IMG/VR virus record: IMGVR_UViG_3300011785_000002
Coordinates: 56,343 to 76,342 of that record
Length of the DNA: 20,000 nt
DNA from: an uncultured virus (IMG/VR IMGVR_UViG_3300011785_000002)
Lineage: Duplodnaviria; Heunggongvirae; Uroviricota; Caudoviricetes
Direction: 5' to 3' (one strand)
The position numbers and the translations under genes are program-made. The notes under the pieces were generated by a model that saw nothing but the letters and a program-made list of their open reading frames with translations, was not told the DNA's origin and did no database searches. Position 1 is the stretch's first letter. Each line of letters opens with the position of its first letter. Shown here piece by piece: positions 1,998 to 7,115 of this stretch.

Positions 1998-4559
1998 CTA
2001 AGCTGCTTTTCTTTCAGTCAAATAGTTCAAAATAAGATCCCTTTCCTCACTACTCGCTCGTTCTTCCCAACGTTCTTTAGGAATACACGGAACACCTTTC
2101 TGAATCTCATGCAATTCAATTTGTCCATAAGGAGCCTGAACAGGGTCGAATGGTTGGAAGGTGTAACCGACGGCTACTGAACTATCGATTTTCACGTTCG
2201 GGAACAGGTCACTGTCCTGAATCATTTCGTTATACAGGAAATCACAAAATGCTGCAACTTCTTGTTTTTTAACGGAAAATAATAATTCATCATGAATAAG
2301 GAGCATGAAACGTGCACTAAACCCTTGTTCCTGAGCATTATTCACAGTACGGATAATGGTTCGTTTCGCCAAAGCAGCACACATCCCTTGGATTGAGAAG
2401 TTCACAGCCTGGTTCAAAGAACGACGATGAATACGACGCATTGCTTCACGTGCAAAGCTCATGATTGCGTCTGACTCATAAGACATAAATACCTCTGTCA
2501 TCAAATCCGACCATTCCTGGGTTGCTTCAAAACGTACCCGAGTGTGATGGTCACCAAGCTTGATAAACCCACGGTTTTTGACCTGTTCCTGGACACCTAA
2601 ACGCCAGGATTCCGCAACTGGGAATTCACTTGTGTAGCCTTTTACAGCTTCTGCAGTACGGTCCATATTCCAGCCCATTTCGTCAGCGATTGTACCTAAC
2701 CAACCAGAATACCAATAACCGAAGTTTGCCACTTTACCCAGCACAGTACGGTAGAATTTTTTATCTGGCAATTCAGAAAATTCTTCAACGGACATACCCA
2801 AGATACCGGCAGCTGCCTTACTATGTAAATCTTTATGCGGTCGTTGCGAATAGGCTGCCAACATTGCCGGATCCTGGCTGTTTGCTGCCACACCTACCAA
2901 TTCAATAGCAGACCAATCGGCTGAAACAATAACACTATCCTCGTCATCCGCCAGGAAGAAGCCACGGACGAAGACCGAATCACCACGCTTGGCCAACTGT
3001 TGTCCGTTTGGTGACGAACAACTGGTTCGACGTGTCGCCAGCATGGACGTCATTTGTGGGTGCATCAACCCTGTTTCTGGATCTACCAAACATAGGTATG
3101 GCGTGATATACAGCTTGAACGCTTGTTCTGCAGAAGCAATTTTCGCGTAAGCTTCCAATAACGGATGCCCTTCCTCAAACTCTGCCAACATCGCTGCCCG
3201 GGCATCTTTATCCGACTGGATCTTGCCACCGGTTGCTTTGCAAGGTAAATCAAAAATCACAAACATTACATAGCGCATGGCCATGTAGTGGTTAATTGAT
3301 AACTGAGCACTTGGTTTAGCGTTCATACCTAGACGGTCTTCAATCCATGCGTTGCTTGGGGCACACTTCACCTGTGTAGCGATTGAATAGCTATCCAGAT
3401 TATCTGGTGATTCAATCCACTGCTTAAATAGACGATAGTATTTTTCATGAGAAGCTGGTTTATACCATTTCTCGTACTTTAATAACTTTTCGTGCATTGG
3501 AGGCATTTCATCTGGGAAATGTTCCCGGACTGCTTTTTTAAGATCCAGCAAGGATTCCGTAAAGGACTCACGCATCGTATCACGACGCATTAAAATTTCC
3601 TTTCGGTTGACTCGCATACCGCCAATGGTGGTTTCAGCAAAGATCCGGGTGATTGGATTCTCTGTTGATAAATAGGTGCCAATCACATCTGGATTTACTT
3701 GCTGTAAGTATTGGTAGACACGGAAGAATAAACGATAGGCCCAAATAGCATCGTCGGCACCATATTCCAGCACTTGTGCAGCTGTTAATGCTTCCATGTC
3801 ACATTCATCACCAAGCGTGTCTTTAAACTCAGCCATTTGGTAACCGAACCAGGATTTGACTGCTTTCTTTAAACCATAACCGTATGAAATATCTTTCACG
3901 ATCCCTTCATAGGAATGTGTCGCTTTCCCAGACTTTGCACAGAACTTGCCTAAGACTTCTTCCTGTTTAAAGGTGAGTTTACCTTGCTCATAATTTGAAA
4001 ACTCACGTTCAATTTCCGGAATCAGTGGTTTAATTCCGCGAAGGACCGCAGCCTGTAAATTATTCTTGTGATATTCATCTGGATTATACGCAGTCACACA
4101 TAGCTGCATAGAACACAAAGTATTCGGCAACACCTGATCGTAACTACCACGATGCACACAATATTCATAAGGTACGTTATGAATGATCAACGTATCGTTA
4201 TGTCGCTTGGCTGTTTCCATCCATTTAAGCAGGTAGGAAATATCAATGGTGTTTTGTGTGTCGGCATGGCCGAAGTTAATGTAGAAAGCTTTATCAGGAT
4301 GTGTTTTACCGAAGTAAAAAGATGCACCTGTAATTTTGGTGCGTTTGAAATCAAACAATAACTTTTTACCATGGGAGAAGCCTTCATCGTCCACCTTCAT
4401 CAATTTCTTGATGCCTTCGTGAGCGTCTCTTTGTGAGGTCTCTATGTCGTAACCTATTAAATTGTTTGGTGTTTTTACTTGTTCCATGAAAAAAACATCC
4501 CAATCCTGTATGTTATTTCGGTCAACAAGTATGTTCTGCACCGGTGCGTGGTAGTCCAA
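1998..4559 (-). CDS. DNA polymerase family A with N-terminal 3'-5' exonuclease domain
   Basis: ExoI YDIET, ExoII HNVPYE, ExoIII YGADDA; TRRTSCSSPNGQQ; motif A DWSAIEL, motif B R..GKVANFGYWY, motif C IHDEL. Start set to TTG 4559, 7 nt after AAGGAG, rather than 4607. Confidence 0.96.
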   Translation of the reverse strand: MDYHAPVQNILVDRNNIQDWDVFFMEQVKTPNNLIGYDIETSQRDAHEGIKKLMKVDDEGFSHGKKLLFDFKRTKITGASFYFGKTHPDKAFYINFGHADTQNTIDISYLLKWMETAKRHNDTLIIHNVPYEYCVHRGSYDQVLPNTLCSMQLCVTAYNPDEYHKNNLQAAVLRGIKPLIPEIEREFSNYEQGKLTFKQEEVLGKFCAKSGKATHSYEGIVKDISYGYGLKKAVKSWFGYQMAEFKDTLGDECDMEALTAAQVLEYGADDAIWAYRLFFRVYQYLQQVNPDVIGTYLSTENPITRIFAETTIGGMRVNRKEILMRRDTMRESFTESLLDLKKAVREHFPDEMPPMHEKLLKYEKWYKPASHEKYYRLFKQWIESPDNLDSYSIATQVKCAPSNAWIEDRLGMNAKPSAQLSINHYMAMRYVMFVIFDLPCKATGGKIQSDKDARAAMLAEFEEGHPLLEAYAKIASAEQAFKLYITPYLCLVDPETGLMHPQMTSMLATRRTSCSSPNGQQLAKRGDSVFVRGFFLADDEDSVIVSADWSAIELVGVAANSQDPAMLAAYSQRPHKDLHSKAAAGILGMSVEEFSELPDKKFYRTVLGKVANFGYWYSGWLGTIADEMGWNMDRTAEAVKGYTSEFPVAESWRLGVQEQVKNRGFIKLGDHHTRVRFEATQEWSDLMTEVFMSYESDAIMSFAREAMRRIHRRSLNQAVNFSIQGMCAALAKRTIIRTVNNAQEQGFSARFMLLIHDELLFSVKKQEVAAFCDFLYNEMIQDSDLFPNVKIDSSVAVGYTFQPFDPVQAPYGQIELHEIQKGVPCIPKERWEERASSEERDLILNYLTERKAA

Positions 4560-4630
4560 TTCATAACTCCTTAAGTTATTTTTGGTATAGAAAAAGGACA
4601 GTAGCAATTGCCCTGTCCGTTGTTACATCT

Positions 4631-4660
4631 AAGATAGTTCATTTGTCACTTGAAAGTCAA
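4631..4660 (-). promoter_or_regulatory. sigma70-like promoter for DNA polymerase
   Basis: TTGACT-18 bp-TATCTT directly after the terminator at 4662-4684. Confidence 0.55.
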
Positions 4661-4661
4661 C

Positions 4662-4684
4662 AAAAAACCCAACTGGAATTGGGT
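4662..4684 (-). terminator. rho-independent terminator
   Basis: ACCCAAT-TCC-AGTTGGGT-TTTTT on the minus strand. Confidence 0.75.
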
Positions 4685-4990
4685 CGTTTGTCGTTTCTTT
4701 CAGTTTTCTGGAAAACTATCCAGTTTTGATTAAGCAGTGAGAATTACTTAATCACAATTAAGGTCCGTTTTGCTGTCTCCACATTAGCAAAATAAAGGAT
4801 GATCCAGTCCCGGACGATTAATTAAACCTAACATATTTTACTTTTAAAGTTAAACAACACACCATCGAAGAAGCTTAACTGGTCTTACCTGACTCTATGC
4901 GATGACCCATGTTTTTCTCGCGCTTTTTGGATCTAAGGAGAAGCGAGAAGTAAGACCTTTTAGATATGAATGGCTAACATCCTGAGAGTA
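4685..4990 (-). ncRNA. candidate structured ncRNA / structured 3' region (ncRNA-3)
   Basis: ~300 nt without a credible ORF, with nested helices 4727-4736/4745-4754, 4756-4767/4811-4823, 4768-4774/4786-4792, 4881-4888/4950-4957, 4915-4920/4944-4949. Confidence 0.5.
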
Positions 4991-4998
4991 ATCTACTA

Positions 4999-5421
4999 TT
5001 ATTCTTTAAGTTTATCAATCTCTTTGTTCATACTTTCACGGATTTCATCCAGGTATTTTTGGTGTTCTTCAAAATCAAAACCCACACCTTCCAAATGCTG
5101 CCAAACATTTTCAGCGTGAGTTTTGTAGTGTTGGGCTTTTTCTAAACCTTCCGATGGTACTTTACCCATCATGGCCAACATAAAAATATCGCTTGCAAAC
5201 AGGCTTTCTTCTAACACATCAACTGAAGACATATTTATCTGTCCGTCCAGGATCACTTCCATGCTTTCTATTTTGGCTTGATTGTTTGGTAGCAAACCCA
5301 TTGTTGCAGTAAACATAGTCAGAACCGGTTGGGTTCCTTGCTGTTTGAAAAGCATATTGGTTTGCAGAATATTCATTGCACGTTCTGCAGCTGACATAAG
5401 CGGTGCTAGTGTTTTAGCCAT
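4999..5421 (-). CDS. hypothetical protein (140 aa)
   Basis: ORF with AAGGA SD, natural helical composition. Confidence 0.8.
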   Translation of the reverse strand: MAKTLAPLMSAAERAMNILQTNMLFKQQGTQPVLTMFTATMGLLPNNQAKIESMEVILDGQINMSSVDVLEESLFASDIFMLAMMGKVPSEGLEKAQHYKTHAENVWQHLEGVGFDFEEHQKYLDEIRESMNKEIDKLKE

Positions 5422-5442
5422 TGGTAGGTTCCTTGTGTTATG

Positions 5443-5466
5443 AAAAACCCCAGACAGTGTCCGGGG
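5443..5466 (-). terminator. rho-independent terminator after the tRNAs
   Basis: CCCCGGAC-ACT-GTCTGGGG-TTTTT. Confidence 0.75.
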
Positions 5467-5491
5467 TTGGGTTTATTTTCGTGGAATAAAC

Positions 5492-5567
5492 TGGTGCTCA
5501 AAGTAGGACTCAAACCTACGACCTGATGCTTACAAGGCAACTGCTCTATCAACTGAGCTATTCGAGC
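5492..5567 (-). tRNA. tRNA-Thr(UGU)
   Basis: Cloverleaf: acceptor GCTCGAA/TTTGAGC, D stem GCTC/GAGC, anticodon loop CTTGTAA, T arm GTAGG-TTTGAGT-CCTAC, encoded ACCA. Confidence 0.95.
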
Positions 5568-5572
5568 TAAAA

Positions 5573-5648
5573 TGGCTGCCTCAACACGGTTCGAACGTGT
5601 GACCAACGGATTAACAGTCCGGTGCTCTACCAACTGAGCTATGAAGCA
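5573..5648 (-). tRNA. tRNA-Asn(GUU)
   Basis: Cloverleaf: acceptor TGCTTCA/TGAGGCA, anticodon loop CTGTTAA, T arm ACACG-TTCGAAC-CGTGT, encoded GCCA. Confidence 0.96.
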
Positions 5649-5658
5649 ATAAACTTTG

Positions 5659-5865
5659 ATTTACTTAAAGGTACGTTCTCCGATTGGTTGACTAGACCAG
5701 TCTAGGTTTTCGCAACAGTGATAATTAGTCACCCTTACTTTGGGTACAAACCTTTGAAAATGCCCTCATTCAGTAGTGCTTACTTCCTAGCTTCATTGGG
5801 AGATTAATCCCTCCACTATTACCTACACACCTTCTGGTTCGTCGAGAACGCACCTTTAAGTAAAT
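5659..5865 (-). ncRNA. candidate structured ncRNA (ncRNA-2, ~207 nt) closed by a 22-bp terminal stem
   Basis: Inverted repeat 5659-5680/5844-5865 (21/22 identical; the difference is a G-U pair on the minus strand) enclosing several short hairpins; no ORF. Confidence 0.7.
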
Positions 5866-6222
5866 TGGACATAGAATGTGATTAAGATTCCTTCTGGATC
5901 CACTACAGTATCCAAAGCCTTGTCCAAGGCTAGTCAGCGGAAGTTAATGTAGTTGCTTACATTACCTGGGTCTGTGTCCGTGACAGTGATTAAGTCACCA
6001 GCTACCTTTTAACGTCAATTAGGCTACCGACAGGATTTCATTTTAGGCTACTTTACTGCTTTATTAGTACAGTATTCAGCTCCTAAAACTACTCAGCCTT
6101 TTTAAGAAGAACTTAATCTTCTTAGTCCAACAAGGATTGACTTAGTCTGACGTAAGATTGAAACCTTGCTGGCTAAGAAAATCAAAACACCAACCTTGCG
6201 GTTAGTGCTTCGTTCTCTATGT
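5866..6222 (-). ncRNA. candidate large structured ncRNA (ncRNA-1, ~357 nt)
   Basis: Starts at the predicted TSS; 5' ACATAGA pairs with 3' TCTATGT followed by CCA; GCAA-tetraloop hairpin; several long helices with minus-strand G-U pairs; no ORF. Confidence 0.72.
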
Positions 6223-6227
6223 GGTTG

Positions 6228-6257
6228 ACTATACAGATGTTCATGTGATCTCGTCAA
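6228..6257 (-). promoter_or_regulatory. sigma70-like promoter for the ncRNA/tRNA operon
   Basis: TTGACG (6252-6257)-18 bp-TATAGT (6228-6233). Confidence 0.65.
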
Positions 6258-6360
6258 CATCATTTTTCTGGTCTTTTTTACGCTTATGTTTGTCTATAAG
6301 ACGAATACCTATGTAAAACAAAGCCTTAACTATATCTACAGCAAGTTCTCGTTTGTTCAT
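6241..6360 (-). CDS. 39-aa cationic amphipathic peptide, putative lysis accessory
   Basis: Read manually: AGGAAGGA SD, then MNKRELAVDIVKALFYIGIRLIDKHKRKKDQKNDVDEIT*; directly after the endolysin; below the ORF-track length cut-off. Confidence 0.7.
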   Translation of the reverse strand: MNKRELAVDIVKALFYIGIRLIDKHKRKKDQKNDVDEIT

Positions 6361-6389
6361 TTTTTATCCTTCCTATTTTTCTGTAACAA

Positions 6390-7115
6390 TCAACGACCTT
6401 TAAAGTAGCGTACTGCTGCAGCCAATTTACCATGATAGTCGTTTTTAGCGTAGAGTTTACCATTGTACATCTGGGCAAAAGGACGACAAGCATCTGGTTT
6501 TTCAGATAAAGCCAGGAATTTAGACTGCCCTCGGTTCATTTCAATAAATGATACTAATAAATCATACTGGGCTTTTTCCGTGTGCGTACATGCGTAAAGC
6601 ATTTCCCATGGGGTTTTGTATCCCATCTGAATATAATATTCACCCATTACCTGGAAGGCACCCATAGACACGGCCATAAAAGCAGCACGTGGGTCATACT
6701 GACAAGCATGGATTAATTTATCGTAACTGTCATTGACGCCATTATTATCTGCGTCTGTTGTGTAATTTCCCCATGATGGGTAATTAAAGAAAGTAGACTT
6801 CGGTGCTGACACGTCATCATTATGTGCCCAGAACTTGTGGCGTTCATACAGGATTTTAGGCATACCATCATTGAACCAGCCTGAGCCATTGGCCTCTACC
6901 TTGGCCACGGCCTTGATCCGGACAGTGTCTGTGTCACCTAAACGACGTGCTAGTTGGAATTTTTCTGATTCAGAAATGGCTGGAGCTTTCTTATTTCGGA
7001 AGCAAGCTAAGATCGCGTCTTTCGAACCGCGGCCGATGATTCCATCAATGGCTCCAAAATAGAATCCTTTATCCTTCAGGAATTGTTGAAATTCCTTGCG
7101 CGTTTTTACAGACAT
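6390..7115 (-). CDS. modular endolysin: N-terminal peptidoglycan-binding domain + N-acetylmuramidase (DUF3380-type)
   Basis: QQFLKDKGFY..IDGIIG (PG-binding); AVAKVEANG, PKILYERHKF, SMGAFQVMG, FAQMYNG..Y..KL motifs. Confidence 0.92.
   Translation of the reverse strand: MSVKTRKEFQQFLKDKGFYFGAIDGIIGRGSKDAILACFRNKKAPAISESEKFQLARRLGDTDTVRIKAVAKVEANGSGWFNDGMPKILYERHKFWAHNDDVSAPKSTFFNYPSWGNYTTDADNNGVNDSYDKLIHACQYDPRAAFMAVSMGAFQVMGEYYIQMGYKTPWEMLYACTHTEKAQYDLLVSFIEMNRGQSKFLALSEKPDACRPFAQMYNGKLYAKNDYHGKLAAAVRYFKGR

Follow-up and report, generated by a model that had tools for sequence, protein, structure and literature searches.

Large folded RNAs beside phage tRNA genes are a recurring and unexplained phenomenon, and in the two best-known classes, ROOL and GOLLD, the structure has been solved but the function has not. 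ROOL RNAs are about 600 nucleotides (nt) long. In phage T4, species I and II, two stable RNAs that are not tRNAs, lie within the tRNA transcription unit and are released by tRNA-processing enzymes. As described by Kretsch et al. 2025 (PMC12286853), many GOLLD members exceed 800 nt, and the class has a 3′ region conserved in all members, a 5′ region that is conserved less well, and a linker in which phage tRNAs are sometimes found. The subject here is RNA1, a predicted structured RNA of ~357 nt encoded by the last 20 kb of the 76,342-base-pair (bp) virus record IMGVR_UViG_3300011785_000002, which has an estimated completeness of 93%; we call this whole 20,000-nt stretch the window. Judged from its fold and its relatives, RNA1 is a strand-specific, conserved structured RNA that belongs to a small uncatalogued family, and its surroundings mark it as the first cistron of a dedicated non-coding operon of ~780 nt that runs from promoter to terminator.

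Going by their description, T4 species I and II resemble RNA1 in setting, and they are much smaller. Among known systems RNA1 is by analogy most like the GOLLD and ROOL kind, while failing membership of both families. As GOLLD and ROOL are described in PMC12286853, all three are phage-encoded, highly structured, pseudoknotted and found beside tRNA genes, and RNA1, like GOLLD, is conserved in its 3′ domain and diverged in its 5′ part, while its variable central arm, comparable to the GOLLD linker, holds a tRNA-like gene in one relative. Set against the sizes given for those classes, RNA1 at ~350 nt is about half as large or less, and it also differs from them in matching no Rfam model, in its unrelated helices and in being known from five contigs. 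A much smaller and simpler family in the same context and with a similar layout offers easier access to the question of what such RNAs are for.

Fold and conservation of RNA1

The source phage is an uncultured siphophage of 76 kb whose nearest named relatives are Acinetobacter phages; the polymerase in the window is 69-71% identical to that of five Acinetobacter baumannii siphophages (TCUP2199, fJoAci01, EAb13, fJoAci04 and Mystique). Relatives collected by polymerase alignment comprised one viral contig (L006) and 16 metagenome loci, and sensitive blastn together with an nhmmer profile found RNA1 in four of these:

L009: polymerase 98% identical, RNA1 ~90% identical
L010: contig that starts inside RNA1, giving a 3′ fragment
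L011: polymerase 70% identical
L006: polymerase 70% identical

With the window the family thus has five lineages, four of them full-length; once past the first 60 nt, the RNA1 sequences of the window and L009 hardly differ. The parts of RNA1 are:

6257-6228, minus strand: sigma-70-type promoter TTGACG-18-TATAGT, matching 10 of 12 consensus positions
6222-5866, minus strand: RNA1, structured RNA of ~357 nt, its 5′ end predicted from the promoter and its 3′ end likewise a prediction
6212-6183, minus strand: H-a, a hairpin of 13 bp in the minimum free energy (MFE) fold, with a GCAA tetraloop and then a U-rich run
6181-6117, minus strand: H-b, a long hairpin of 9 bp, a bulged A, 9 bp and a variable tip
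6118-6105, minus strand: 5′ strand of the long-range closing helix H-c, GAUUAAGUUCUUCU
6104-6027, minus strand: variable central arm, with GGCUG at 6098-6094 and a hairpin at 6088-6041
6026-6000, minus strand: core strand, in the alignments the most conserved and mostly unpaired, UAGCCUAAU...CGUUAAAAGGUAG
5999-5985, minus strand: hairpin A, loop CUUAA, 95% paired, with a G-C to A-U change in L011
5984-5933, minus strand: helix B (GUCACGGA/UCCG-C-UGAC), enclosing conserved unpaired CACAGACCC and hairpin C
5931-5916, minus strand: hairpin D, whose loop GGAC (5925-5922) is the 5′ strand of the pseudoknot
5913-5896, minus strand: hairpin E, 85% paired, with 2 of 4 pairs changed on both sides
5895-5880, minus strand: 3′ strand of H-c, AGAAGGAAUCUUAAUC
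5870-5867, minus strand: 3′ strand of the pseudoknot, GUCC, which pairs with the hairpin D loop (90% of cells paired)

RNA1 folds to an MFE of -111.4 kcal/mol against a mean of -85.0 kcal/mol for 100 dinucleotide-preserving shuffles, none of which was as good (z -5.26), and its antisense reaches -88.8 kcal/mol (z -1.7). The same strand preference is seen in all four full-length homologues, where the sense strand has z -4.4 to -7.3 and is more stable than the antisense by 12-25 kcal/mol. The lineages share one architecture: H-a, H-b, the helix H-c closing a multibranched body, a free central arm, a 3′ domain made of A, B/C, D and E, and the pseudoknot. Nearly all elements of the original prediction, made from the window alone, are borne out. 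Its promoter is present, with TTGACGA and, 17-18 nt on, TAATNT or TATAGT in matching position in the window, L009, L011, L006 and the TCUP2199 stretch L004, and in L006 and L011 it sits in non-coding sequence. Its GCAA hairpin is H-a, its ~16-bp TTCTTAG/CTAAGAA helix is the bulged hairpin H-b, and its long-range helix around a multibranch domain, like its hairpins AGCCUU/AAGGCU (5931-5916) and UAAUGUA/UACAUUA (inside 5967-5942), appears in the MFE fold; the helices are kept in relatives with compensatory changes.

In the 5′ part the strongest comparative signal comes from H-b, in which 72 of 72 cells are paired across four sequences, five pairs are changed on both sides, and none of the four full-length homologues lacks the bulged A. 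Its covariation is 0.472 compared with 0.218 in shuffles (0 of 500 as high), and slid structures pair at 34-62%. The covariance model of this domain (R2) inherited a MAFFT misalignment of H-a and was used for H-b only, so that conservation of H-a rests on single-sequence folds. These give each of the four full-length homologues a counterpart of 13-16 bp with a 4-nt loop (GCAA, UCAG, UUCG or GAAA) and an unrelated stem sequence. The H-a stem has three G-U pairs, and a terminator scan lists it as terminator-like, a shape that the original prediction had not remarked on.

The closing helix H-c forms a duplex of -12.7 kcal/mol in the window (z -2.6), built of two 7-bp segments around a 2-nt bulge; L006 preserves this arrangement with changed pairs (z -3.2). 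When the segment downstream of H-b is paired with the segment downstream of hairpin E, the strongest duplex uses homologous strands in each of the four full-length homologues. The central arm is free to vary: L009 and the window differ there by one base near the 3′ end, L011 has an unrelated hairpin instead, and in L006 the arm is ~450 nt long and includes a tRNA-like gene scoring 36 bits. The loop-E-like GAA/AGUA site proposed in the original prediction lies in this arm and lacks comparative support, because the arm differs completely in L011 and L006. Two further candidates in this part were set aside. A junction helix GGCUG/UAGCC is possible in all four full-length homologues and never rises above shuffles, so it was left out of the supported set; a tetraloop-receptor pair was dropped, the H-a loop being of the GNRA type in just two of four homologues.

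Conservation is highest in the 3′ domain. A 29-nt block (~6010-5982) made of the 3′ end of the core strand and hairpin A has one difference between the window and L006, at a polymerase identity of 70%, and the loop CUUAA is kept in all four lineages that cover hairpin A. A covariance model of the domain (R1; Infernal, 177 positions, 32 pairs, effective sequence number 2.0) scores the five members at 90-201 bits, with the next-best match at 15 bits. Across the five sequences 91.0% of 134 cells are paired, compared with 80.3% in shuffles (0 of 500 as high), and 11 pairs are changed on both sides, compared with 4.9 in shuffles (1 of 500). Slid structures reach 30-44% pairing. With few and related sequences, an alignment fitted to the model and L011 one column off in hairpin D, these figures are indicative and are not proof. 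In helix B (helix 2 of the model) pairing is 100%, and two sequences show one pair changed on both sides; in helix 3 of the model, in the 5984-5933 region, pairing is 92% and both sides have changed in 5 of 9 pairs.

The new element here is a pseudoknot that, on the alignments, joins the 3′ tail of RNA1 to the loop of hairpin D. Its strands are GGAC/GUCC in the window, GAACC/GGUUC in L006 and GAAC/GUUC in L011, so that one pair goes from G-C to A-U with pairing kept; an additional A-U pair, one whose formation would conflict by overlap with hairpin D's closing pair, becomes C-G in L006. Beyond this pairing the lineages remain homologous for a few nt only. A tRNA then starts after the last conserved pairing by 7 nt in L009, 12 nt in L010, 6 nt in L011 and 7 nt in those variants of this phage that lack RNA2, a second structured cassette that lies between RNA1 and the tRNAs in the window. 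Such variants come from a comparison of four sequencing runs as assembled contigs, which show variants and not transcripts, ends or levels. This spacing of 6-12 nt in three relatives and in the RNA2-free variants points to RNase P, cleaving at the next tRNA, as the probable maker of the RNA1 3′ end, and makes the earlier proposal of maturation by the tRNA-processing machinery plausible. In vertebrate MALAT1/mascRNA, RNase P cuts before a tRNA-shaped element to make a 3′ end that is then protected by a terminal tertiary structure. The 3′-end logic is the same and the analogy is one of mechanism only, since MALAT1 is eukaryotic, its end is protected by a triple helix where RNA1 would have a pseudoknot, and the tRNA-shaped element beside it is no genuine tRNA.

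Two other roles considered for the 3′ domain were dropped: pairing of the core to the 3′ end of 16S rRNA is broken by the covariation of hairpin A in L011, and a boxA-like antitermination site in UUCUUAGCC falls in a stretch that is base-paired and covaries.

Known families and further members

The claim that RNA1 is an undescribed large phage non-coding RNA, neither GOLLD nor ROOL, is upheld by the Rfam searches. At gathering scores, cmscan with the 4227 families of Rfam 15 reported only the two tRNAs in the window, and at E<=10 with permissive filters over 5400-6500 there was no match inside RNA1 or RNA2. The L006 and L004 loci gave tRNAs and noise only (L006 at E<=5). The GOLLD and ROOL covariance models matched neither RNA1, at gathering score or at E<=10, nor the L006 homologue at E<=5, and the RNase P models matched neither the window at E<=10 nor L006 at E<=5. 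Neither L006 nor L011 retains a short likeness that CACAGACCCAGG has to a conserved stretch of RNase P RNA. No Rfam model of group I or II introns or of small self-cleaving ribozymes was listed for RNA1 or the homologous loci, and within 5866-6222 neither ARAGORN nor the Rfam models at E<=10 reported a tRNA or tmRNA. Riboswitch and T-box models had no match to RNA1, and its 3′ end has no expression platform of a hairpin and U run: the sole terminator-like hairpin listed by the scan is at the 5′ end, and the 3′ end passes straight into RNA2 or a tRNA. This absence argues against a riboswitch-type leader.

In searches for further members, the RNA1 body was not found by nhmmer in the TCUP2199 (L004) or Mystique (L005) stretches or in the other collected loci; what the Acinetobacter phages share with the RNA1 locus is the promoter stretch only (an nhmmer match to L004). 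Model R1 found no further member in the loci searched or in the whole TCUP2199 and Mystique records (next-best 13-15 bits, E 0.15-0.43). Against 50,697 phage records, blastn gave no match for 5640-6270 or for the L011 homologue, and for the L006 homologue only a 74-nt stretch of the five Acinetobacter phages and tRNA-Met genes. The endolysin and the open reading frame (ORF) starting at 5421 had no relatives in viral contigs. Used as a DNA pattern on viral contigs, the 29-nt core returned the L006 contig only; a 25-nt core pattern returned nothing in metagenome contigs, and a 20-nt pattern gave one chance match beside an unrelated tRNA in a bacterial metagenome-assembled genome. A gapped H-b pattern run over viral contigs returned the L006 and L011 contigs and no further member; two other matches read as coding sequence and were taken for chance. 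Raised depth over 5865-5949 in an RNA-labelled run is due to short contigs of relatives and is uninformative about expression.

Readings of RNA1

We favour the reading, at a probability of about 0.55, that RNA1 is a stand-alone gene for a released, stable, trans-acting non-coding RNA. It is favoured because RNA1 has no 3′ expression platform, both its ends appear structurally protected, it has long conserved unpaired stretches and it sits in an accessory, fast-changing island; the locus varies strongly among close relatives. RNase P would cut at the 5′ end of the following tRNA to form the 3′ end of RNA1; where the locus carries RNA2, the cut would instead be made by RNase III or RNase E, within the 22-bp stem of RNA2 or next to it. 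The 3′ end would then be trimmed back to the pseudoknot, which with the 5′ hairpin would shield the ends of RNA1, and the mature RNA would act in trans during infection, via protein binding or self-assembly, as an accessory function. The one hint of self-assembly is the self-complementary UUAA conserved in the loop of hairpin A.

Several points weigh against this reading. The family is small, which weakens the comparison: it has five lineages, of which one is a fragment and two hardly differ over most of the RNA. Because pairs were counted on alignments fitted to the models, the counts lean towards structure. L011 has no helix B/C as such and no proximal half of H-c, and in both L009 and L011 only the distal half of H-c pairs, not above shuffles. 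H-a, terminator-like and ~10 nt past the predicted start, could also stop most transcripts or belong to the upstream lysis operon.

A bolder version of the trans-acting reading, which we regard as a long shot, makes RNA1 the compact counterpart of the cage-forming GOLLD and ROOL. Its pseudoknotted 3′ domain and two long 5′ arms would together build an RNA-only multimer, through contacts such as that same UUAA, and its central arm would be a linker for cargo, for example the tRNA-like gene of L006. The surrounding island would then be one of anti-host accessory RNAs, RNA2 and the oversized tRNA look-alikes described below among them.

The main rival to the trans-acting reading is control of termination in cis, with RNA1 as an operon leader: H-a would be an attenuator or terminator, or RNA1 would act in processive antitermination, its fold remaining bound to RNA polymerase and taking the enzyme past later terminators into the 5421 gene and beyond. 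HK022 put and other processive-antitermination RNAs are hairpin RNAs that lie directly behind a promoter in units that pass terminators. RNA1 shares that position directly behind a conserved promoter, H-a with its U run is terminator-like in all four full-length homologues, and the gap between the terminator behind the tRNAs and the next ATG is too short to hold a promoter, as is also the case in L010, L011 and L004. We nevertheless consider a cis-acting leader unlikely. H-a is transcribed ahead of the RNA1 body, so the body cannot control it, and the Acinetobacter phages that lack RNA1 keep the promoter, the terminator and the terminator-before-ORF layout, so RNA1 is not needed for that layout. 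The put RNAs are far smaller than RNA1, whose ~350 nt with a freely variable arm are far above the size of the antitermination RNAs known to us, and RNA1 differs from them further in that its first hairpin is itself terminator-like. That the whole locus consists of modules closed by long helices, gained and lost between close relatives, would fit RNA1 as a mere structured spacer that shields the precursor from Rho and nucleases, offers cut sites and has no function after release. Such a spacer would not be expected to hold the core and hairpin A block to one difference at 70% polymerase identity, nor to keep the unpaired GACCCA, the bulged A and the covarying pseudoknot, and we think this reading improbable.

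Features of RNA1, namely a pseudoknotted conserved core with invariant unpaired nucleotides flush with a tRNA, might suggest a self-cleaving or otherwise catalytic RNA that aids tRNA release. No Rfam 15 ribozyme matches even at E<=10, no cleavage site can be named, and the tRNA-linked ribozymes known to us are small and lie behind tRNAs rather than in front; we hold a catalytic role to be very unlikely. The original prediction had pointed to a tRNA-like end, in which an acceptor-type stem and 3′ CCA would imply RNase P processing on the 5′ side of RNA1 itself and perhaps aminoacylation. The 7-bp terminal stem, ACAUAGA (6222-6216) with UCUAUGU (5875-5869), and the CCA behind it (5868-5866) are indeed present in the window, but they are not conserved. 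In L009 the 5′ strand of the stem is lost, the first 60 nt being replaced, and the 3′ tail is kept letter for letter; against 300 shuffles the leader-to-tail duplex has z -2.9 in the window, -1.4 in L009, +0.6 in L011 and +1.4 in L006. CCA ends the RNA in two of five lineages, the window and L009, and the others have CCU, CAU and UUC. The stem runs directly into CCA without a discriminator base, no T arm is present, neither ARAGORN nor the Rfam tRNA and tmRNA models found anything, and the CC of the terminal CCA lies within the 3′ strand of the pseudoknot. On this comparison, which largely refutes the tRNA-like reading and leaves it a negligible share of our confidence, the tail is conserved for the pseudoknot and not for tRNA mimicry, and taking the CCA end for a tRNA mimic is a misreading. 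A place between lysis and replication genes would also suit a DNA-level element such as a replication origin, a packaging site or protein-binding palindromes. The G-U pairs, three of them in H-a, would however be A-C mismatches on the other strand, the sense strand folds better than the antisense by the margin given above in all four homologues, and a promoter and tRNA genes flank the element on the same strand, so that a role as DNA is scarcely credible.

The surrounding locus and its modules

The minus strand carries all large ORFs of the window, and the RNA1 locus lies between lysis genes and replication genes; a helicase, exonucleases and a resolvase are also encoded in the window. Read 5′ to 3′ on the minus strand, the order is endolysin, 38-amino-acid ORF, promoter, RNA1, RNA2, tRNA-Asn, tRNA-Thr, terminator-like hairpin and the ATG at 5421. 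The features outside RNA1 are:

7115-6390, minus strand: endolysin
6359-6243, minus strand: 38-amino-acid ORF, whose end overlaps the promoter
5860-5650, minus strand: RNA2 cassette of 211 nt, with a closing helix of 22 bp (arms 5866-5844 and 5680-5659)
5648-5573, minus strand: tRNA-Asn (GUU), found by Rfam and ARAGORN
5567-5492, minus strand: tRNA-Thr (UGU), found by Rfam and ARAGORN
5466-5443, minus strand: intrinsic-terminator-like hairpin, 8 bp with a 3-nt loop and five U's, read from the sequence, which ends the operon
4607-1998, minus strand: DNA polymerase

The hairpin at 5466-5443 is missing from the terminator scan output and was aligned to the terminator of an unrelated small RNA model. 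The next ATG (5421) is only 21 nt past it, and similar hairpins ~20-30 nt before the next start codon are seen in L010 (200-255), L011 (3195-3250) and L004 (3078-3142). This is too near the ORF for a promoter, so the downstream gene seems dependent on read-through. Upstream of the polymerase gene, at 4625-4690 on the minus strand, a hairpin and six U's are directly followed by TTGACT and, 18 nt on, TATCTT, which looks like a terminator-promoter pair; a non-coding stretch of 339 nt at 4660-4998 folds no better than chance (z -1.9). Both the window and TCUP2199 encode the polymerase in one open frame. In Mystique its tblastn match is in five pieces, and the gene is annotated there (L005 4037-6630) as four 'putative DNA polymerase' coding sequences and one hypothetical. 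One 8.8-kb contig of run X1 skips 80 nt of the window (5565-5644), fusing tRNA-Thr to the start of tRNA-Asn, and thus represents a variant with one tRNA instead of two.

RNA2, like the terminator shape of H-a, is a feature absent from the original prediction. It folds to -72.8 kcal/mol (z -5.93) and is absent in L009. Contigs of runs X2 and X3 join 5649 to 5861 precisely, beside contigs that carry RNA2, with four letters, TTTA, ambiguous at the joint; TTTA stands at both edges of the insertion or deletion. A homologue in TCUP2199 (L004 2194-2400) has a closing helix that differs in sequence and keeps the same pairing. RNA2 looks, from these sequences, like a movable RNA module, and its long stem is a possible RNase III site.

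The phages related to this one include cultured Acinetobacter phages of therapeutic interest, TCUP2199, EAb13 and Mystique. These three have 1.4-1.6 kb of similar unannotated RNA modules at the same locus, without RNA1. The published phage descriptions give one tRNA at the locus in Mystique and none in TCUP2199, as far as those accounts go, and a word search of the papers on these two phages gave no mention of non-coding RNA. In TCUP2199 a strong hairpin-plus-U terminator stands ~100 nt past the conserved promoter (L004 1493-1640), which would yield a short RNA or form a pair like the promoter and H-a of the window.

Oversized tRNA look-alikes of ~100-195 nt occur at L009 2979-3175 and at L004 ~1868-1968 and 1969-2105. 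They have an acceptor stem of 7-8 bp, a T arm and a 3′ CCA, and a large insert replaces the D and anticodon arms; ARAGORN makes no call on them, and a 20-nt stretch of the insert is common to L009 and L004. The fold of the whole L009 look-alike is at z -0.46. Part of the central insertion of L006, including the 5′ strand of H-c (2320-2454), is 73-84% identical to a module in all five Acinetobacter phages (L004 2831-2970), a likeness to phages otherwise lacking RNA1 that suggests exchange of modules between RNA loci. Between tRNA-Asn and tRNA-Met, L006 carries another module (3174-3332), closed by a helix of ~20 bp, with ends UUUACUUAGAG ... CGUCUAAGUAAAU that resemble those of RNA2 and a T-arm-like GGUUCAAACCC within it.

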